A stretch of DNA of 37,869 bases from Candidatus Scatosoma sp. Its GTDB lineage: Bacteria > Bacillota > Clostridia > Christensenellales > Borkfalkiaceae. Positions 23,441-37,869 of the stretch are shown here, in pieces (within the stretch, counting starts at the first letter, position 1; each line of letters starts with the position of its first letter). The notes under the pieces are model-generated. The model was not told where the DNA came from, did no database searches, and saw only the letters and a program-made list of their open reading frames with translations. A program made the position numbers and the translations under genes. The DNA lies in contig JAZNIR010000135.1 in assembly GCA_045577595.1 (NCBI GenBank), positions 1 through 37,869 of the forward strand, given 5' to 3'.

Positions 23441-25180
23441 ATGATACGGAAAAACGACAGTATTTGCGCGATTACCGAAGCTATCGGTTCGGGCGGAGAA
23501 GGGATTATCAGGCACGAAGGGGTAACTTTTTTCGTGCCTGCTTGTTTGCCTAACGAAAAGGTACGCTTTAAAGCGCTGAAAATAAAGGGGAACGTGGGAT
23601 ACGGAAAGCTGGAAGAAGTGCTTACGCCTGCAAAGGAACGGGTGCGGGCGAAGTGTCCCGTTTTTTTGCGTTGCGGTGGGTGTTGTTTGCAACATTTGGA
23701 TTATTCCGCGCAACTTGTACATAAATCGAAAGTGGTGAAAGACGCTCTGCGGAAAATCGGCGGTTTGGACGTGGACGTGCCGACGGCGATTGCCAGCGAT
23801 TTTCCCTACGCATACAGAAATAAATTGCAAATGCCGATTGGCGTAAACGCGCAAGGGGAAACGGTGATTGGATTTTATGCCGAACGTAGCCACCGTATCG
23901 TGGAAATTTCTTCGTGCGCTATTCACCCGCAGTGGGCGGAGAAGTTAATTGCCGTTGTAAAACGGTACGTGGCGGAAAAGGGGGTACAGGGTTACGACGA
24001 AACGAAAAAGACGGGGTTATTAAGGCATATCGTCGCGCGGGAAATCGGCGGGAATTTTATCTTTACGCTGGTGGCAACCAATGGAAACGTGCCGTTTTTG
24101 GAGTATTTTGTAAATCTACTTTCCGAAGAATTTTCTTCCTTTTCGTTATACGTCAACGTGAACGATAAAGATACGAACGTGATTTTCGGCGAACGCTTTC
24201 ATCTCGTACACGGGCAGGGCTTTTTTCAAGCGGAAGAACAAGGAATACGTTACGAAGCGGGGCCCGTTACCTTTTTGCAAGTGAACGAAAACGTGCGTGG
24301 AAAGCTGTATCAAGACGCTTTGCAAACGGTGGTGAACGGCGGGGACGAAGTAGTTGTCGACGCGTATTCGGGCGGTGGACTTTTGACGGCTATGATAGCG
24401 AAAAAAGCGAAAAGGGCGTACGGAATCGAATTGGAAGAAGAGGCGTCCCGTTGCGCCGACGCGTTAAAGAAAAAAAACGGTTTGGGAAATATGACGAATA
24501 TTTGCGGGTACGTGGAAGAAAAGCTGTTTGCCGTCGTGGAAAGGGAAAAAGCCGAGAAATTGCGTTTAATTCTTGACCCGCCCCGCGCGGGAATAGCGCG
24601 GAGCGTTTTGAAAGCCTTATTGCAAAGCGGTATTCCAAAGCTTACGATTATTTCTTGCAATCCCGCTACGCTTGCGCGAGATTTAGGGATATTGACGGGG
24701 CGTTTGGTGGAAAACGAAAAGGGCGAATTGATGAAAAACCCCGATTTCGACGTAAACGGAAAGGGGAATACGGGCGATTATTACGAAATAGAACGCATAC
24801 AACCTTACGACATGTTCCCCCAAACCAAACACGTGGAGACGTTAGTTGTTCTTTCCCACAAAAAACCTGACGGACATATCAGTGTAAACGTAGAGTTTGG
24901 AGAAGAAGAAGGACAGGTTTCTCTTAAAGATATAGAAAAGCGCGCATTAGAGCGTGCGCCTAAGAAAAAGACGACTTACAAAGATATTCAAGCGTATATC
25001 GAAGAAAAGTATGGTTTCAAAGTGCATACGGCTTACATTGCCGAAGTGAAAAGAGATTTAGGCTTACCTATGTATGATGCTCCGAACGCAGTAAACGAAT
25101 TAAAATATCCGCGTTCACATCCAACGGATGAAATGGTAGAAGCGATAAAAGACGCTCTTAAACATTTTGAGATGATTTAA
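23441..25180 (+). CDS. rlmD: 23S rRNA (uracil-C5)-methyltransferase RlmD/RumA with a ~110-aa C-terminal extension of foreign composition
   Basis: TRAM-like N-terminus, Fe-S cysteines CPVFLRCGGCCLQH, DAYSGGG and DPPRAG SAM motifs, and SCNPATLARD with the catalytic Cys. After ...HVETLVVLS the codon usage changes. The tail is KVHTAYIAEVKRDLGLPMYDAPNAV. Confidence 0.88.
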   Translation: MIRKNDSICAITEAIGSGGEGIIRHEGVTFFVPACLPNEKVRFKALKIKGNVGYGKLEEVLTPAKERVRAKCPVFLRCGGCCLQHLDYSAQLVHKSKVVKDALRKIGGLDVDVPTAIASDFPYAYRNKLQMPIGVNAQGETVIGFYAERSHRIVEISSCAIHPQWAEKLIAVVKRYVAEKGVQGYDETKKTGLLRHIVAREIGGNFIFTLVATNGNVPFLEYFVNLLSEEFSSFSLYVNVNDKDTNVIFGERFHLVHGQGFFQAEEQGIRYEAGPVTFLQVNENVRGKLYQDALQTVVNGGDEVVVDAYSGGGLLTAMIAKKAKRAYGIELEEEASRCADALKKKNGLGNMTNICGYVEEKLFAVVEREKAEKLRLILDPPRAGIARSVLKALLQSGIPKLTIISCNPATLARDLGILTGRLVENEKGELMKNPDFDVNGKGNTGDYYEIERIQPYDMFPQTKHVETLVVLSHKKPDGHISVNVEFGEEEGQVSLKDIEKRALERAPKKKTTYKDIQAYIEEKYGFKVHTAYIAEVKRDLGLPMYDAPNAVNELKYPRSHPTDEMVEAIKDALKHFEMI

Positions 25181-25270: not shown

Positions 25271-25304
25271 TTGACAGTTTTTTTGCACACGAAAGTGATA
25301 TAAT
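25271..25304 (+). promoter_or_regulatory. promoter of the accessory operon (extended -10)
   Basis: TGaTATAAT at 25296-25304. TTGACA at 25271-25276 sits at a non-optimal 22-nt spacing. Confidence 0.5.
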
Positions 25305-25319
25305 ATAACCAACGGAATA

Positions 25320-25393
25320 TAACAGGCAAAGGCACGACTATTTGAGGAATAGTCGTGCCTTTGCTTGTTTACAGGCAAAGGCACGACTATTTG
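25320..25393 (+). repeat. direct-inverted-direct repeat leader (A 25322-25344, A' 25348-25364, A 25371-25393)
   Basis: acaggcaaaggcacgactatttg occurs twice, 49 nt apart. Between the two copies lies its reverse complement aatagtcgtgcctttgc, giving a 17-22 bp hairpin with either copy. Confidence 0.9.
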
Positions 25394-25408
25394 GGTCTAA
25401 GAAAAAAA

Positions 25409-25783
25409 ATGAAAAAAAGCAGTTTGAGAAAGTTTTTGAATTCGTATTATTTGATAATTGAATCCGTAAAAGAAAAACGACGCGAAACGGAGCTTCTATT
25501 GTATGGTCGTAGAAAAAGAATTAGTATACCTGATTGGTGTTGGAGAATAGAAGAAATTTTTCAAAAAATAACAGTCGCGGAAAATAATTTTATCGTGAAT
25601 GAAATTATTGATAAGGTATATAGGCAAGGGGTAGGGGATAAAAGCGTATTTTTAGACTTGCCTATTACGGAAAGTGGGTACTACCGATTAAAACGCAAAC
25701 TTGAAGAAAAAATTTATGAGCTATATATCTCAAGCGGCGACGTAGACGAAGAAGAAATCTTAAAAAATAAATTAATGGAATAA
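25409..25783 (+). CDS. ArpU/RinA-like small transcriptional regulator (sigma region-4-like HTH)
   Basis: 124 aa from the ATG at 25409. The C-terminus LPITESGYYRLKRKLEEKIYELY resembles the ArpU-family motif (SES.FYRLK.RAL..F). The track start at 25355 lies inside the leader hairpin. Confidence 0.5.
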   Translation: MKKSSLRKFLNSYYLIIESVKEKRRETELLLYGRRKRISIPDWCWRIEEIFQKITVAENNFIVNEIIDKVYRQGVGDKSVFLDLPITESGYYRLKRKLEEKIYELYISSGDVDEEEILKNKLME

Positions 25784-25797
25784 AGAGGTAAAAAAAC

Positions 25798-33321: not shown

Positions 33322-36300
33322 ATGGGAATTATTAAATTAAAGAATGCGAACGATGAGCAAGCGGCGGAAAACGCTGCTTTGGAAGAGCAACAGGCGTATA
33401 AACAGGCTGTTGAGGCACAAGTGAGTGCAGAAGTTCCTCAAGAGGAACATGAACAATGGGATGACCCTGCTGTATTGCATGAGGACGAAACGAGAACGGA
33501 TGAAAACTCTCGACACTACGTTTTAAATAACGGCACGGCTAAGTCTGTGTTTAATGCGGAACCGGTGAGTTTCTTTGACGAAGAGGAAAAGAAATGGAAA
33601 CATATCGACAACTCTTTGGAAGAAAAAGAGGATGCGTTTGAAACTAAAAGCGGTAAGTTTAAAACCCGAATTTCCAAAGTACATAAAGGTAAAAAAGTTG
33701 CAATTTCTAAATCGGACAAGCAACTTTCTTGGGAGTATCTTGGGAAACAGGTTGCTGCCGTTGCAAATGAAAACGTTGAAGACATAGCGGAAACGGTTTT
33801 GAAGGTAAATAACGGTACGCAAGGCGTAGCAAAACATATCAATAGTTCGGCGATTTACGAAAATATTGAGAAGGATACCGACCTTGAATATTGCTTGCTG
33901 GGGAATAACCTTAAAGAAAATATTATCGTTAAAGAAAAATCTGCGGATTATAGATACCTTTTCGCATTGAAAACGGAAGGGTTGAAACTTCGTCTTTCGG
34001 ATGATAACGAAAGCTTGGAACTTTATACCGAAAAGGAAAAGGAAGACGGAACGGTAGAACAAAAGGTAGAGTTCACCATTCCCAGTCCTTATATGTACGA
34101 TGCAAACGGCGTTGCGAGCGACGACGTTTATTATGAGTTGGAGCCGTCTGAAGACGGAAAGTTTGCTTTTGCTGTCGTTGCGAACGAAGAATGGGTGAAT
34201 GCTGCCGATAGAGCGTTCCCCGTTACGATTGACCCGCAAGTTGTGACGAGTCAAAACAATCTTGTCACTAAGCAAACGTATTATAGAGATATCTATTCAA
34301 GTTATGGTTCTGGCTCAGGGTCGGGGACAAGCTATAGTAGTTGGTATACGAGCTCTATTGCGAATATTAAAGTGAGCCGTTCTAATTATAGCGAATATAA
34401 AACAACATTAACGGTAAAGAGAAATTTGTTCGATTTAATAACAGATAATATCTTAAGCGTTAAATTGGTTTTGACACCCAGTAAATCGTTTAGCGGATAT
34501 TTGTATTGCAATGGGGTTTTGACTTATTACAATACGGAAAATGGTAATCTAAAAATAGATATAACAAATAGTTTTAAAAATAATTTAAATAGTTTCAGTG
34601 TAACATTGGAACCGTATACATATACGGATATGCAGTTTTATATGAGTGGTGAAGCTCCTAAAATTGAGATCCAGACCTTGACAGATGAAAATGTACTACC
34701 GTTGAAAAAAACATATTCTTTGGCAGGGACGGTTAATGGTGAATTGAATTTTTCTACAGGGGAAATTGTTAACAGTTATACTGATGTTCCAGGTAGAAAT
34801 ATTTTGTTGGGATTGCCTATTGCGCATATTTATAAAAAACATTCTTCGGATTTTTATGTTGGGAAAAATTTTAGATTAAACTTACACGAACAATTTAAGA
34901 ATAATGATGGAACCTATGAGTATACCGATGCGATGGGAAATGTTTACGGTTTCAAGGAATATCATTATTGTTTCGATGATAATGGAAACAAGAATTATAT
35001 TCTTGCGTCCAAAGATGAAATTACCATTGAAACAGATGGTAGATTAACATATAACGGGAAAGAGGTTTTTCTTGAATATAAATCTCTTACAGGATTGAAA
35101 GCGATAACGAATATTGAAGATTATATTCATAGCGAGTTTTTTGAAAATAGAGGTGACGAAGAAAAACAATACGGGGAACAATGTGAAAATTATAAGGCAA
35201 GCTTGTGTAATTATGTTGCCGTTTCGTATGATGGAAGTTGTAAGGCATATTTGAGTGACTATATTTCAACCAATAAAGCGTTTCAGCAATTTCTTAATGA
35301 TACAAAATATTATTATCTAATGACGAAAGCGGAGAAAGATACATATGAAATATTAAATGAGCAATATAAAAACCCTACAGATTCTTCTGGGCAAAATATT
35401 ATCTCTATGCAAATGACAGACATTAGGAATAAGTCTGCGGATTATATTTCTCAAATTAAAAGGACGTATAAAGAATATGCAAATATCAAAGAGACATTCA
35501 ATCAATGTCAATTGCAGTCTCCTATAAATTTCTTGACCAATGAGAAGATTATTAAAGGGTACAATAAATACGGTCAGCTTGTTAATGTATATGATAGATA
35601 TGGGAACTATGTTGTAATTGAATACGAGAGATATGATGTCCATAATTTGGATAAAGTTAGAATAAAACAAATTTATGATAATCAAAAGAATCTTATTGTT
35701 TTTTCATACAATCTTAATGAGAAATTATCTAGTATTTTAGATGTCAATGGACGCAAGATTAATTATATATACAATGACGACGGGTGGTTGCTTGAAATCA
35801 ACGATGATAATGGTATACAATTAGTATTTGGCTATGATTCAAATGGTAACATTAATCTTATTACAGAAAAGAAGAAACAATTGAGAAGTACATTGTCGCA
35901 GACGAGTAATACGCTTTCGATTTTAAATGAATCTTTAGTGGATACTGTAAAGCTTGATGAAATGGTTACTGATGAATCTACTGATTCAGGTGCTTTATCT
36001 AAATATGATTTCGTGTTTACAAGAAATGGCTATCAAGAAATCGATAATGTTTTAGTGACATCAAAAACGTGTCGCGAAAAGTATATCTTCAATTTAAATA
36101 AAAGCCTTTCTGGATATTATATTGAAGAAAATGGTGTGGTTGTAAAAGCAGAACAATACGATTATCAAAGTTATTGGAATGGGAATATGCCACAAGATAA
36201 TCCTCGAAGTGTTACTAAAAAGGCCGCTGCATCTTCTTTATGTAAAGTTGGAATCGAAAGTTATACCTTTGTTGTTGGTGATACAGAAACGACAATTATC

Positions 36301-37869
36301 GACCAATTTAATAATCCAGTAAGCAAGACTACGAGTGCTGTTTTGGTATCCGAATGGACGGATTCTAATGGCGTAGAACAACAGAATAAGCAAACGGCTA
36401 CGGTAAGTTATGTTTATGACGATAATCAAAAGCTTGTTCAAGAAACGATTGTTGTAACGGATAGTAATCCTGCGAAAACCGTTACTTCGTATAAGAAATA
36501 CAATTATAACGCATACGGCGACGTAATTAGAACGGAAAGCTATGTAGAAGGCGAAGAATACACGACGGGTAAAACGATTGAAGAAACCGTTTACGATGAT
36601 AAAGGAAACGTAATCAAATCGTTTACGTATAATTCTTTGGATACGAGTAGCAAGTTCTATACCGAAACGGAATATGATGACAATGGTAAAGTTCTTGCCG
36701 AAATAGACGAAACGGGCGAAAATAAGACGAAATTCGGTTATGTAGACGGAACGAGCACTGTTCGTGAAGAAGTTCTTCCCAACGGCAGTAAATTTGCATA
36801 CGGAAGAGATTATGACGATACGGTTACGGCAATTTCGCAAAGCACGGAAGACGGCGAGGAAAACTCCACGCAAAAAGTGCATCGTTATGGCGCAGTCGTT
36901 GAACTTAAGAGCGGTAATAATAACGTGAAATATGCGTATAACCATAAGCGTAAACTGAAAGCTGTTGAACTTAACGGCGTTGAAGAATACGTAAAATACG
37001 ATTATGTAGAAACGCAAGATAGTTACGGATCTGTAGCAAAAGAAATCATAACTGCAACGTATAAATCTGGCGACGTATTCGTAAGCGAAAAAGACGGTAA
37101 GGGTAATTTGCTGAAATTAACGGCAAATAACGTCGTTCAACTTGAAAATATTTACGATAAAAAAGGTCAACTTAATACGTTGAAAGATAAAGTTACAGGT
37201 AAAAACTACAGGTTTGAACGTGACGAGCTTGATAACGTAACGGCAGTTTACGAAGTAGATAGCAGCGACGTGCAAATTTCCAATGGCTATGGCGAAAGTG
37301 TTATTTACGACGAACTCGGCAGCGTTAAGAAGAAAACGATTGTAGGTCCCGTTTCTCAAGTTTACGATTATACCTATAAAACGAATTCATTGCATACGTT
37401 GGAAAGTATTGCAGTTGGCAACGTGTCGATTAAACCTGAAACTGACGTTCAAGGTAGAAATAAAGGCAAATCTCTTTATATCAACAACGTCAAGGTTGGG
37501 GAAGAAAATATCTCTTACCGTAAAGTTAGCGACCACGCAACAAATATGCCGAGCACGGTTTGGTTTGGGGATAAAACGAACGGTACTTATCAAATCAAAG
37601 ACAGTATTCGATATGCTTACGATGTAATGGGTAATATCGAAAAGGTATATGAAAACGGCGAGCTTGCTATCCGTTATCAATATGACGCACTTAACCGACT
37701 TGTGCGCGAGGATAACAAAACGCTTGACAAGACCTATGTTTTTGTGTATGATAATAATGGCAATATCGTTAAGAGAAGAGAGTTTGTCTTCACGTTAAAA
37801 GACGCTACTTTAATCGAAGAACTTGAGTCTACGGATAAAGTATATATCTATAACGGCGACCAAATGGTA
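33322..37869 (+). CDS. Rhs/YD-repeat family protein, N-terminal 1516 aa (continues beyond window)
   Basis: Not in the ORF track because there is no stop codon in the window. I translated it codon by codon from the ATG at 33322, which has AGGAGG at 33305-33310, and found no stop through 37869. YD repeats run from ~35.56 kb onward (VYDRYGNYVVIEYERYD, YVYDDNQKLV, YNAYGDVIRTESY, VYDDKGNVIKSFTYN, EYDDNGKVLAEIDETGENKTKFGY, YQYDALNRLVRED, FVYDNNGNIVK). Confidence 0.85.
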   Translation, partial: MGIIKLKNANDEQAAENAALEEQQAYKQAVEAQVSAEVPQEEHEQWDDPAVLHEDETRTDENSRHYVLNNGTAKSVFNAEPVSFFDEEEKKWKHIDNSLEEKEDAFETKSGKFKTRISKVHKGKKVAISKSDKQLSWEYLGKQVAAVANENVEDIAETVLKVNNGTQGVAKHINSSAIYENIEKDTDLEYCLLGNNLKENIIVKEKSADYRYLFALKTEGLKLRLSDDNESLELYTEKEKEDGTVEQKVEFTIPSPYMYDANGVASDDVYYELEPSEDGKFAFAVVANEEWVNAADRAFPVTIDPQVVTSQNNLVTKQTYYRDIYSSYGSGSGSGTSYSSWYTSSIANIKVSRSNYSEYKTTLTVKRNLFDLITDNILSVKLVLTPSKSFSGYLYCNGVLTYYNTENGNLKIDITNSFKNNLNSFSVTLEPYTYTDMQFYMSGEAPKIEIQTLTDENVLPLKKTYSLAGTVNGELNFSTGEIVNSYTDVPGRNILLGLPIAHIYKKHSSDFYVGKNFRLNLHEQFKNNDGTYEYTDAMGNVYGFKEYHYCFDDNGNKNYILASKDEITIETDGRLTYNGKEVFLEYKSLTGLKAITNIEDYIHSEFFENRGDEEKQYGEQCENYKASLCNYVAVSYDGSCKAYLSDYISTNKAFQQFLNDTKYYYLMTKAEKDTYEILNEQYKNPTDSSGQNIISMQMTDIRNKSADYISQIKRTYKEYANIKETFNQCQLQSPINFLTNEKIIKGYNKYGQLVNVYDRYGNYVVIEYERYDVHNLDKVRIKQIYDNQKNLIVFSYNLNEKLSSILDVNGRKINYIYNDDGWLLEINDDNGIQLVFGYDSNGNINLITEKKKQLRSTLSQTSNTLSILNESLVDTVKLDEMVTDESTDSGALSKYDFVFTRNGYQEIDNVLVTSKTCREKYIFNLNKSLSGYYIEENGVVVKAEQYDYQSYWNGNMPQDNPRSVTKKAAASSLCKVGIESYTFVVGDTETTIIDQFNNPVSKTTSAVLVSEWTDSNGVEQQNKQTATVSYVYDDNQKLVQETIVVTDSNPAKTVTSYKKYNYNAYGDVIRTESYVEGEEYTTGKTIEETVYDDKGNVIKSFTYNSLDTSSKFYTETEYDDNGKVLAEIDETGENKTKFGYVDGTSTVREEVLPNGSKFAYGRDYDDTVTAISQSTEDGEENSTQKVHRYGAVVELKSGNNNVKYAYNHKRKLKAVELNGVEEYVKYDYVETQDSYGSVAKEIITATYKSGDVFVSEKDGKGNLLKLTANNVVQLENIYDKKGQLNTLKDKVTGKNYRFERDELDNVTAVYEVDSSDVQISNGYGESVIYDELGSVKKKTIVGPVSQVYDYTYKTNSLHTLESIAVGNVSIKPETDVQGRNKGKSLYINNVKVGEENISYRKVSDHATNMPSTVWFGDKTNGTYQIKDSIRYAYDVMGNIEKVYENGELAIRYQYDALNRLVREDNKTLDKTYVFVYDNNGNIVKRREFVFTLKDATLIEELESTDKVYIYNGDQMV

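Follow-up and report, generated by a model that had tools for sequence, protein, structure and literature searches.

Carrier-protein acyl-transfer cassettes next to signal-less Rhs toxins in Clostridia: a candidate maturation or export system

Introduction

To our knowledge, papain-fold enzymes of the CtaG/BtrH/AziU3 type have so far been met only in small-molecule antibiotic pathways. CtaG and BtrH have been shown experimentally to be carrier-protein-dependent, amide-forming transacylases with a Cys-His-Asp triad (PMC7183216, PMC12865890), and BtrH moves an acyl group from an acyl carrier protein (ACP) to a free amine acceptor (PMC12865890). AziU3 and AziU2 form a solved heterodimer whose large subunit has a CtaG-like fold (PMC12865890), and the reaction of this pair is the closure of an aziridine ring with sulfate as the group displaced (PMC12559475). 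The present study concerns relatives of these enzymes that stand beside a protein toxin. In a stretch of 37,869 nucleotides from Candidatus Scatosoma sp. (assembly GCA_045577595.1, contig JAZNIR010000135.1, positions 1 to 37,869; “the window” below), the gene for an Rhs toxin without a signal peptide follows a cassette of eleven genes that includes two predicted transacylases of this type, two carrier proteins, and an adenylating enzyme.

Rhs toxins are major weapons in bacterial competition, and we know of no explanation for the export of Gram-positive Rhs proteins that lack a Sec signal as well as the features of a type VII secretion system (T7SS). A preliminary description of the locus had called its accessory gene set unusual for Rhs, and in the literature searched no paper was found that links these families to Rhs proteins. 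The coupling of a signal-less Rhs to the cassette and the N-terminal MGxIKxK tag described below were likewise absent from that literature, which included a survey of polymorphic toxins (PMC3482391) and recent work on Gram-positive toxins. Each component is of a known kind; it is the combination that was not found in the searched literature, and it has the appearance of a system for maturing or exporting the Rhs toxin that has not been described before.

Results

Conservation of the cassette with Rhs

Tracing homologues of genes 10, 2, and 6 of the window led to about 80 genomic and metagenomic loci (numbered with an L below). The order [gene 1]-gene 2-gene 3-Tmk-nucleotidyltransferase (NTase)-gene 6-ACP-ANL-ACP-BtrH-AziU2-Rhs persists over identities from 99% to as low as about 30-40%. 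Carriers are metagenome-assembled genomes of Christensenellales and other Clostridia, many of them species-level, and one cultured strain, Pumilibacter muris (L029). Among dereplicated loci with at least 1.5 kb of downstream sequence, an Rhs gene starts within 1.5 kb of the last AziU2-like gene in 19 of 25, and a BtrH-AziU2 pair remains next to Rhs in the permuted cassette of L072 and in the multiplied ones of L019/L082, which carry three such pairs. The preliminary description had allowed for a chance juxtaposition, with related modules never adjacent to Rhs; the conservation of cassette plus Rhs across many loci speaks clearly against this, and the linkage is not due to chance.

Since the cassette is found in different genomic contexts, two of them just downstream of a rolling-circle Rep gene, the block moves as a unit. 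In these two loci, from distant genomes (regions L011 176-2388 and L083 1-9196), a REP_ORF2-G2P initiator gene lies just upstream of the cassette, resolvase/recombinase genes lie further upstream, and L083 also has a LexA-like repressor; this context suggests carriage on an integrative mobile element. The interval between the AziU2-like gene and Rhs can hold additional genes: an optional gene of the nitroreductase family (168-169 aa) in L021 (11451-12020), L029 (11479-11988), L031 (11489-11998), L083 (17410-17919), and L085 (12148-12654), and a 353-364 aa protein of no known family in L018/L045, L084, and L085.

The Rhs protein and its N-terminal tag

The Rhs gene and the two parts of its N-terminus are as follows.

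33322 to 37869, + strand: gene 12, Rhs/YD-repeat polymorphic toxin without signal peptide, 1516 aa up to the window end (PF05593, 2e-11)
33322 to 33342, + strand: Rhs N-terminal heptapeptide M-G-I-I-K-L-K (alignment of cassette-linked Rhs)
33343 to 33456, + strand: Rhs hypervariable acidic linker, aa 8-45 (column identity)

Both halves of the earlier designation, signal-less and Rhs, hold: PF05593 and TIGR01643 match the window protein, and it has no hydrophobic N-terminal segment (maximum KD19 -0.37). No known trafficking determinant (Sec, PAAR, LXG, or TcB-type) was found in the window Rhs, with PAAR and LXG looked for by Pfam, and aa 1-500 contain no Pfam domain. The start of the protein is secure: 6 nt ahead of it is a stop codon in the same frame, and an AGGAGG ribosome-binding site is present.

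What the complete cassette-linked Rhs proteins examined have instead is a common beginning: all start with M-G-[ITS]-I-K-[LMFI]-[KRM], with one exception, MSIIKLK in L016. At positions 3, 4, 6, and 7 of this tag the codons vary in synonymous or conservative ways, which shows selection on the peptide. Among the other open reading frames (ORFs) of the fetched loci, the MGxIK motif was not found except for one chance internal match. Column identity is at least 90% for most of aa 1-7, drops to 20-50% in the linker, and stands at 70-90% from W46-DDPAVL onward; across cassette-linked Rhs proteins the acidic stretch measures 35-60 residues before conservation resumes at W-DDPAVL-ED. The body that follows is not peculiar to this lineage. 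A full-library search with Rhs residues 1-330 returned 3805 representatives, and among the best 150 of them 36 start with the MGxIK motif, 47 have classical hydrophobic signal peptides, and 67 have other N-termini, many of which open with MK-x-x-[LI]-G-[KN]-K or have no sequence ahead of the conserved domain. Because relatives that share the N-terminal domain carry signal peptides, the motif occupies the position of a secretion signal; judged from these relatives, the Rhs body would normally be Sec-exported, and in the cassette-linked lineage the heptapeptide and linker appear in the signal peptide's place.

A second family of signal-less Rhs proteins starts with M-K-[ILFVM]-x-[LI]-G-[KN]-[KQ] (proteins P0358, P0359, P0367, P0368, P0382, P0392, P0403, P0411, P0417, P0418, P0425, P0431, P0452, P0455, and P0457); the MK-x-x-[LI]-G-[KN]-K motif was not found in the fetched loci. 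These N-termini suggest that several short tags may replace signal peptides in clostridial Rhs proteins. At the other end of the N-terminal domain (aa ~322-346, window 34285-34360) lies a low-complexity stretch rich in Ser, Gly, and Tyr, SSYGSGSGSGTSYSSWYTSS, which gives a spurious Serglycin match and has similar counterparts in homologues.

The preliminary description had proposed extending the contig to reach the Rhs C-terminal toxin and immunity genes. This was not achieved: all 14 contigs with an identical gene 11 break inside the Rhs gene, the longest at 1753 aa. Full-length cassette-linked Rhs proteins are 1920-2220 aa long with TEN_YD-shell matches, and a simple pattern scan places the PxxxxDPxG end of the core (of the PVMNVDPNG type) 180-230 aa from the C-terminus in 5 of 11 complete homologues. 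The C-termini differ between loci (Tox-REase-7 in P. muris, 2.5e-13), and downstream in homologous loci lie a small ORF of 117-134 aa, without a family match, and orphan Rhs C-terminal fragments. By these features the full-length homologues are probably genuine polymorphic toxins. Four of the MGxIK type (P0310, P0312, P0318, and P0322) have long, Gly/Ala-rich, hydrophobic C-terminal domains after the PVM[NR]VDPNG core end, which suggests membrane-inserting toxin domains rather than nucleases.

The acyl-transfer module

Six genes directly upstream of Rhs make up the module.

29258 to 30085, + strand: gene 6, first papain-fold transacylase, CtaG/BtrH/AziU3 type, predicted (AlphaFold2 and Foldseek)
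30078 to 30311, + strand: gene 7, carrier protein 1, PP-binding with DSL serine motif (PF00550, 5.9e-10)
30308 to 31564, + strand: gene 8, short ANL adenylating enzyme, 418 aa (PF00501, 2.1e-47)
31561 to 31797, + strand: gene 9, carrier protein 2, PP-binding with DSL serine motif (PF00550, 1.1e-12)
31784 to 32725, + strand: gene 10, second papain-fold transacylase, BtrH_N, predicted (PF14399, 3.2e-10; Peptidase_C39_2, 2.9e-5)
32722 to 33315, + strand: gene 11, AziU2-like partner subunit (profile of 17 homologues)

The two carrier proteins and the adenylating enzyme of the preliminary description are confirmed by the Pfam scores given above. The D-S-L motif is conserved in both carrier-protein families, as are TSGTTGxPKG and SGK in the ANL enzyme. 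The nearest solved relatives of the latter are feruloyl-, fatty-acyl-, o-succinylbenzoate-, and 4-chlorobenzoate-CoA ligases, with the A domains of nonribosomal peptide synthetases (NRPS) scoring lower, so its acid substrate is probably of the aryl or fatty-acid type and not an amino acid.

The two “BtrH-like” transferases of the same description stand on different evidence. Gene 10 is recognised by hidden Markov model, but gene 6 does not match PF14399 (E <= 0.1) and is BtrH-like by fold. The designation is right in that sense because the gene 6 model (predicted local distance difference test, pLDDT, 92.7) has AziU3 (8gs1_B/D) and CtaG (9qvq and others) as its sole significant Protein Data Bank (PDB) matches in Foldseek (probability 1.0, TM-score 0.50-0.56). 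At the level of profiles the relation is not seen: the gene 6 profile has no PDB match, that of gene 10 has chance-level matches only, and hhalign gives an insignificant 0.3% probability for the gene 6 and gene 10 families against each other. Residues C15, H119, D118, and N131 of gene 6 are invariant in 35 sequences, and C20, H115, and D97 of gene 10 in 20 sequences. A papain-like N-terminal domain with a helical C-terminal region, conserved Cys, His, and Asp, and dedicated carriers with a loading enzyme are the features of the transacylase class; acyl transfer is what they predict.

Gene 11, unnamed in the preliminary description, is by profile comparison an AziU2 homologue: a profile of 17 homologues matches AziU2/Azi28 in the PDB (7wuw_A, 8gs1_A) with E = 8e-8 over the full length (residues 4-184), and the motifs D-N-x-x-C-E-G-Q and L-P-x5-H-x-F-A-x-T-L are shared with AziU2/Azi28. 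Since gene 11 matches AziU2 and the large subunit of the solved heterodimer is CtaG-like, genes 10 and 11 can be read as an AziU3/AziU2-like pair. In every locus with both, the AziU2-like gene directly follows gene 10, either as a separate gene or fused to it (L036, L054, and L033); gene 6 is fused to carrier protein 1 in L084. These fusions are Rosetta-stone evidence that the partners interact. The carrier-protein genes and the single ANL gene are interleaved with the transacylase genes.

Two clean deletions were seen in this module between otherwise (near-)identical contigs. Relative to L036 (13089-14843), L037 lacks 1755 bp comprising the NTase 3′ end, gene 6, carrier protein 1, and the 5′ half of the ANL gene; relative to L044 (13745-14525), L042 lacks about 780 bp comprising the 3′ end of gene 6 and carrier protein 1. 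They could be natural variants or assembly artefacts. Decay of the module in Rhs-less lineages was considered as a test of dependence on Rhs and set aside as not discriminating, with deletions in both Rhs-less L037 and Rhs-bearing L042.

Genes 1 to 3

The cassette opens with three genes that, like genes 6 and 11, have no match in Pfam, NCBIfam, or PHROG.

25409 to 25783, + strand: gene 1, small putative regulator, 124 aa (ORF opens at GTG 25355; sub-threshold DUF1492)
25798 to 27051, + strand: gene 2, predicted cytoplasmic right-handed parallel beta-helix protein, 417 aa (AlphaFold2 and Foldseek)
27064 to 27588, + strand: gene 3, sole membrane protein of the cassette, 174 aa (hydropathy, alignment)

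Gene 1, present in only part of the cassettes, probably starts at ATG 25409 rather than GTG 25355, because homologues are conserved from that ATG onward and the GTG is part of the leader hairpin. Its earlier reading as a phage-type regulator leans on a sub-threshold DUF1492 match in 3 of 5 homologues, in the same C-terminal stretch each time, and the window protein itself lacks a family match.

Gene 2 is the cassette's most conserved protein, with 57-83% identity where its neighbours are at 40-50%, and falls into 242 homologue clusters, all of about 415 aa. The family suggested for it, PF13229, does not match even at E <= 0.1, but the structure model (pLDDT 92.6) does show the beta-helix. Its Foldseek neighbours are phage tailspikes (including those of Gram-positive phage), a fucoidan lyase, AlgE mannuronan epimerases, and NosD, at a TM-score of ~0.43, and the gene 2 profile has no match in the PDB. 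The model places it in a generic, putatively polysaccharide-active beta-helix class, outside any specific family.

Gene 3 was described as holin-like. The topology fits (a small protein with 1-4 transmembrane helices and a charged tail), but it matches no holin family. It has 2-3 N-terminal transmembrane helices (~10-34, ~45-73, and a weaker one at ~78-97) and an acidic tail, in which, by alignment of homologues, a variable acidic linker is followed by a conserved C-terminal K-I-[IV]-L-[RK]-G-[KR]. This motif, at window 27535-27555 (aa 158-164), is present in Rhs-less cassettes too. Its composition is close to that of the Rhs tag (G-I-I-K-L-K) and of the N-termini MK-I-I-L-G-K-K found in other signal-less Rhs proteins; the gene 3 tail and the Rhs starts may be complementary beta-strand docking motifs.

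Kinase and nucleotidyltransferase

Between the membrane protein and the acyl-transfer module lie two enzymes of nucleotide metabolism type.

27563 to 28207, + strand: gene 4, thymidylate-kinase-family P-loop kinase (PF02223, TIGR00041)
28207 to 29265, + strand: gene 5, NTP_transf_5 (Pol-beta-like) nucleotidyltransferase (PF14907)

Both earlier assignments stand. Gene 4 matches PF02223 at 3.5e-27 and TIGR00041 at 98.8 bits, above the cut-off of 83.25; its best PDB matches are all Tmk, and 20 homologues keep the P-loop and DRY motifs without change. By these scores it is at the equivalog level for dTMP kinase, which makes dTMP a candidate substrate. Gene 5 matches PF14907 at 1e-22 with its G-S ... 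D-x-D motif conserved in at least 90% of 21 sequences; a single-sequence PDB search with it found no solved relative.

Gene layout, island, and leader

The ORF list gives 12 consecutive + strand ORFs from 25355 to 37869, the Rhs gene being the 12th. The eleven junctions reported earlier were all reproduced exactly from the ORF list and the translations with upstream sequence:

Genes 1/2, + strand: 14-nt gap (25783/25798)
Genes 2/3, + strand: 12-nt gap (27051/27064)
Genes 3/4, + strand: 26-nt overlap (27563/27588)
Genes 4/5, + strand: TAATG at 28207
Genes 5/6, + strand: 8-nt overlap (29258/29265)
Genes 6/7, + strand: 8-nt overlap (30078/30085)
ATGA junctions, + strand: 30308, 31561, and 32722
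Genes 9/10, + strand: 14-nt overlap (31784/31797)
Gene 11/Rhs, + strand: 6-nt gap (33315/33322)

These junctions bear out an operon-like, translationally coupled layout, and the gene tables show the same pattern of coupling and overlap in homologous cassettes at 40-50% protein identity. Internal signals are at chance level: 9 terminator-like sites against 7.7 +/- 3.1 in shuffles, in agreement with the claim that there is no internal terminator, and 39 promoter-like sites against 43.7 expected. No terminator-like site was found at the 33315/33322 junction, and the sole strong hairpin of the terminator scan is that of the leader. We infer that the block is expressed as a single transcript.

The block is a low-GC island. 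GC content falls from ~46% to ~36% at ~25200, and the genes upstream in the window are housekeeping (PrmA, a radical-SAM methylthiotransferase, an aminotransferase, threonine synthase, DUF5685, and a tRNA U5-methyltransferase-like protein). Given the drop in GC and the ordinary chromosomal genes upstream, the block is an acquired island and not a prophage. Prophage origin was considered and rejected on these neighbours, on PHROGs, which match only Tmk, and on a scan of 2.9 million viral contigs, in which the gene 2 profile has no relative. By exact-sequence look-up, 14 contigs carry the island, all at one and the same position of the chromosome. The gene adjoining it (23441-25180) encodes 579 aa, with a tRNA U5-methyltransferase domain only at residues 265-418 and a long N-terminal part without a family match; the GC boundary lies directly after this gene in all contigs carrying the island.

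Two elements precede gene 1.

25296 to 25304, + strand: extended -10 element TGaTATAAT, putative promoter (read from the sequence)
25321 to 25394, + strand: leader hairpin with third copy of its 5′ arm (RNA fold, terminator scan)

The single promoter described earlier is better read as the extended -10 element; the TTGACA at 25271-25276 is 22 nt off, too far for a canonical -35. (The consensus promoter scan omitted the element at 25296-25304 owing to this spacer.) The leader contains a perfect long hairpin at 25321-25369, with a 17-bp stem in the terminator scan, and a third direct copy of the 5′ arm at 25373-25394. The leader RNA folds at -40.1 kcal/mol (z = -6.9; none of 200 shuffles fold as well). 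The 3′ arm is free to pair with either copy of the 5′ arm, hence an attenuator-like arrangement; the leader could be an attenuator, a terminator, or an operator, possibly a triple operator. All three arm copies are retained in close relatives only (at least 84% identity).

Discussion

A cassette dedicated to the toxin?

Our tentative reading, which we hold with something short of even confidence, is that the block is a set of accessory genes, transcribed together and spread by horizontal transfer, that specifically serves an Rhs toxin independent of Sec, and that it acylates an amine and aids export. The chemistry would be a thiotemplated, NRPS-independent acyl transfer: by homology, the ANL enzyme would activate a carboxylic acid and load it onto the two carrier proteins, and the two CtaG/BtrH-type Cys-His transacylases, one of them working with an AziU2-like partner subunit, would pass the acyl group from the thioester, via Cys-acyl intermediates, to a primary amine. 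The preliminary description had listed covalent modification of the Rhs protein among several options, and the conserved N-terminal motif gives this option a concrete target. The most likely acceptor would be the alpha-amine of Gly2 at the Rhs N-terminus, since methionine aminopeptidase can take off the initiator Met when Gly or Ser follows it; the epsilon-amines of Lys5 and Lys7 are alternatives. With MG at its start and basic residues after it, the tag is similar to the myristoyl-plus-basic motifs that target proteins to membranes, and there are precedents for acyl transfer to Lys or to an N-terminal Gly in the acyl-ACP-dependent acylation of RTX toxins by HlyC, in eukaryotic N-myristoylation, and in the ACP-dependent N-acylation of goadvionin, a ribosomally synthesised and post-translationally modified peptide. 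Those precedents use other enzyme families (TAAT, NMT, and GNAT), and we know of no papain-fold, carrier-protein-dependent N-acylation of a protein.

Export could follow from the same modification. The acylated basic N-terminus may bring the 220-kDa toxin to the membrane, and, by analogy with holin-plus-wall-enzyme release of the type 10 kind, the gene 3 protein, with its three putative helices, might provide passage through the membrane and the cytoplasmic beta-helix protein of gene 2 passage through the wall. Possible tasks for the Tmk-like kinase and the NTase are synthesis or activation of the acyl substrate, or transfer of a phospho- or nucleotidyl group. In its most specific form the proposal would be an undescribed export route in monoderm gut Clostridia, with Rhs acylated on Gly2 (and/or Lys5 and Lys7), the AziU2-like protein as specificity factor, and release via genes 3 and 2; stated so fully, it is unlikely.

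Several observations weigh against a cassette dedicated to Rhs export. The solved relative of the gene 10-11 pair, AziU3/U2, is a cyclase and not a transacylase, and the kinase and NTase have no role in the favoured model. For gene 2, Foldseek identified no specific enzyme family or catalytic site (TM-score ~0.4), and neither gene 3 nor five of its homologues match Pfam, PHROG, or NCBIfam even at E <= 1. Part of the conservation of the tag may reflect translation initiation or selection at the nucleotide level: Lys5 is always AAA, and Gly2 is GGA in 22 of 24 sequences. Intact cassettes without an adjacent full Rhs gene also exist. L036/L046 have a fused BtrH-AziU2 gene upstream of gene 2, no Rhs, and end at a BrkB gene; L054/L055 are of the L036 type with a deletion remnant in which the N-terminal 60 aa of Rhs are fused to a C-terminal part; L026 is a full cassette with no Rhs downstream; L017 has only gene 6-ACP-ANL-BtrH-AziU2, in a genome that also has a full cassette; and L038/L039 have only gene 2, gene 3, Tmk, and a WbsX-like protein. 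The module can therefore persist without Rhs in cis and is not strictly tied to it, and perhaps it functions that way.

Some details of these variants are of note in themselves. The gene 2 protein of L036 and L046 is identical and indexed in 138 blocks of the contig collection. The remnant of L054/L055 starts with MDTIKLN; that the Rhs N-terminal domain might be a separate protein in Rhs-less cassettes was considered and rejected, these loci carrying a deletion remnant. The minimal variant of the L038/L039 type adjoins an integrase, a DUF4011 helicase, and a methylase, and L017 has as neighbours a Polysacc_synt flippase-type gene, a SASA esterase, MazG, and Dus. A distant BtrH/BtrH-AziU2 locus in Clostridium tepidiprofundi is a small-molecule cluster with a kinase, a phosphopantetheinyl transferase (PPTase), an adenylation domain with peptidyl carrier protein (A-PCP), and ABC exporters. 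From this cluster and the Rhs-less variants it follows that the enzyme set derives from natural-product-type pathways.

Other readings of the cassette

That ancestry opens the way to a small-molecule biosynthetic gene cluster (BGC) of the closthioamide, butirosin, or azinomycin type, in which Rhs would be the co-regulated cargo of a “competition island” and not a substrate. The product would be an acylated amine, perhaps a nucleotide-linked or electrophilic metabolite, acting independently of Rhs or alongside it. Characterised relatives of all the enzyme families belong to natural-product pathways (PMC7183216, PMC12865890), the C. tepidiprofundi locus is a classic BGC, and there are Rhs-less and reduced cassettes; the optional nitroreductases look like tailoring enzymes, and the kinase and NTase could install the leaving group for a cyclisation of the AziU3/U2 type. 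By Pfam, however, the window cassette has no small-molecule exporter and no PPTase, nor does it have an enzyme for building the amine (ATP-grasp or aminotransferase), and its most conserved proteins, a beta-helix protein and a small membrane protein, are atypical of a BGC. Order-preserving coupling of BtrH-AziU2 to Rhs across deep divergence is left unexplained, as is an N-terminal motif exclusive to these Rhs proteins, and we consider a small-molecule cluster somewhat unlikely. The beta-helix protein, with the fold of polysaccharide-active enzymes, would find a place if the cassette modified an envelope polymer (for instance a polysaccharide of the wall, a polymer like teichoic acid, or a lipid-linked precursor) with an acyl, phospho-, or nucleotidyl-derived group, so as to anchor or display Rhs on the producer surface or to protect the producer. 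D-alanylation by Dlt uses ANL/carrier-protein chemistry and offers an analogy; in the minimal variant a WbsX-like glycan enzyme accompanies gene 2, gene 3, and Tmk, the reduced module of L017 adjoins its flippase-type gene and esterase, and related Rhs proteins that share the N-terminal domain are exported to the surface by Sec. Yet no enzyme of the cassette has a signal peptide, the sole membrane protein is a small one with 2-3 transmembrane helices and not an MBOAT or flippase, and the L017 flippase belongs to a housekeeping neighbourhood (MazG, Dus). Neither the route of a signal-less Rhs to the surface nor the invariant heptapeptide is accounted for, and envelope modification seems improbable to us.

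Taken as peptidases instead, the papain-fold proteins might be Peptidase_C39-like leader peptidases that cut the MGxIKxK tag and acidic linker, with the ANL enzyme and carriers serving some other end. The Rhs N-terminus is leader-like, with a short motif, a variable acidic stretch, and a conserved DDPAVL boundary, and there are the Peptidase_C39_2 match of gene 10 and a weak Foldseek match of gene 6 to the peptidase domain of PCAT1. But the double-glycine site and the peptidase-containing ABC transporter (PCAT) are missing, the best structural matches are CtaG and AziU3 and not peptidases, and the two carriers and ANL gene are interleaved with the papain-fold genes, one of them fused; proteolysis of this kind is very improbable. 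An anti-phage defence or abortive-infection island, with the vicinity of Rhs reflecting the clustering of conflict systems, is barely credible. The Tmk-like protein has weak PADLOC matches (PDC-M51B, 4.5e-11; VakA, 2e-7), but these fall in different candidate systems and no other cassette protein matches PADLOC; the beta-helix resembles phage tailspikes and the minimal variant lies beside the integrase, helicase, and methylase, but no cassette was found in the 2.9 million viral contigs, and the conservation of gene order with Rhs exceeds what island-level clustering would give. We also know of no defence system built on carrier-protein acyl transfer.

Significance

If the tag is an acyl acceptor or an export signal, the cassette represents a new maturation and secretion route, and if the proposed export route is true, thiotemplated “natural-product” enzymes have been co-opted for the modification and secretion of a giant protein. 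Enzymes of the CtaG/BtrH/AziU3 class would then act on, or together with, a protein toxin, and the class would gain an AziU2-like partner subunit outside aziridine biosynthesis. The cassette is a concrete and widely distributed candidate machinery; its tag of seven residues is open to mutation, and Pumilibacter muris CLA-AA-M08 is a carrier in culture. Since the carriers are Christensenellales and related Clostridia of the gut, the system may influence how members of the gut microbiota compete.

Comparison with known systems

Closest in enzyme content is the closthioamide pathway of Ruminiclostridium cellulolyticum, which has the same loader, two carriers, and papain-fold transacylase (the ANL enzyme CtaI, the peptidyl carrier proteins CtaH and CtaE, and CtaG; PMC7183216, PMC12865890) and whose CtaG crystal structures are matched by gene 6. 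The window cassette differs in having no ATP-grasp enzyme, decarboxylase, or thioamide synthetase and in having two transacylases, one with an AziU2-like subunit. It also adds a kinase, an NTase, a beta-helix protein, and a membrane protein, and is coupled to a protein toxin and not to small-molecule export. With AziU3/AziU2 of azinomycin (and Vzb10/11 of vazabitide) it shares a homologue of AziU2, gene 11, and upstream of it a protein of the same fold group, gene 10; unlike those pathways, it has no sulfotransferase or amino-group carrier protein family among the twelve window proteins, and gene 10 keeps the invariant Cys/His pair typical of transacylases. BtrH/BtrI of butirosin is related through the BtrH_N match of gene 10 and the same proposed type of reaction. 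There the acceptor of BtrH is an aminoglycoside, whereas the window cassette contains no aminoglycoside genes.

On the side of the toxin, holin-dependent release of large clostridial toxins (TcdR/TcdE, TcsL) and type 10 secretion likewise combine a signal-less giant toxin with a small protein of several transmembrane helices and a charged tail, a small regulator (putative in the window), and an enzyme of the wall-active type, to which gene 2 is a possible counterpart (PMC8878733, PMC11344133). Gene 3, however, matches no holin family, gene 2 is no recognised muralytic enzyme, and the known systems have no acyl-transfer module. Sec-dependent, wall-associated Rhs proteins of Firmicutes (WapA type) and those associated with a secretion system of type VIIb (T7SSb) in Listeria have the same YD shell, a polymorphic C-terminal toxin, and downstream immunity genes and orphan cassettes (PMC10327511), and the N-terminal domain of the window protein (aa 45-320) is common to many Rhs proteins that bear signal peptides. 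In contrast to both, the cassette-linked Rhs dispenses with signal peptide, LXG, and WXG; in their stead it has the MGxIKxK motif with its acidic linker and, upstream, the cassette of eleven genes.

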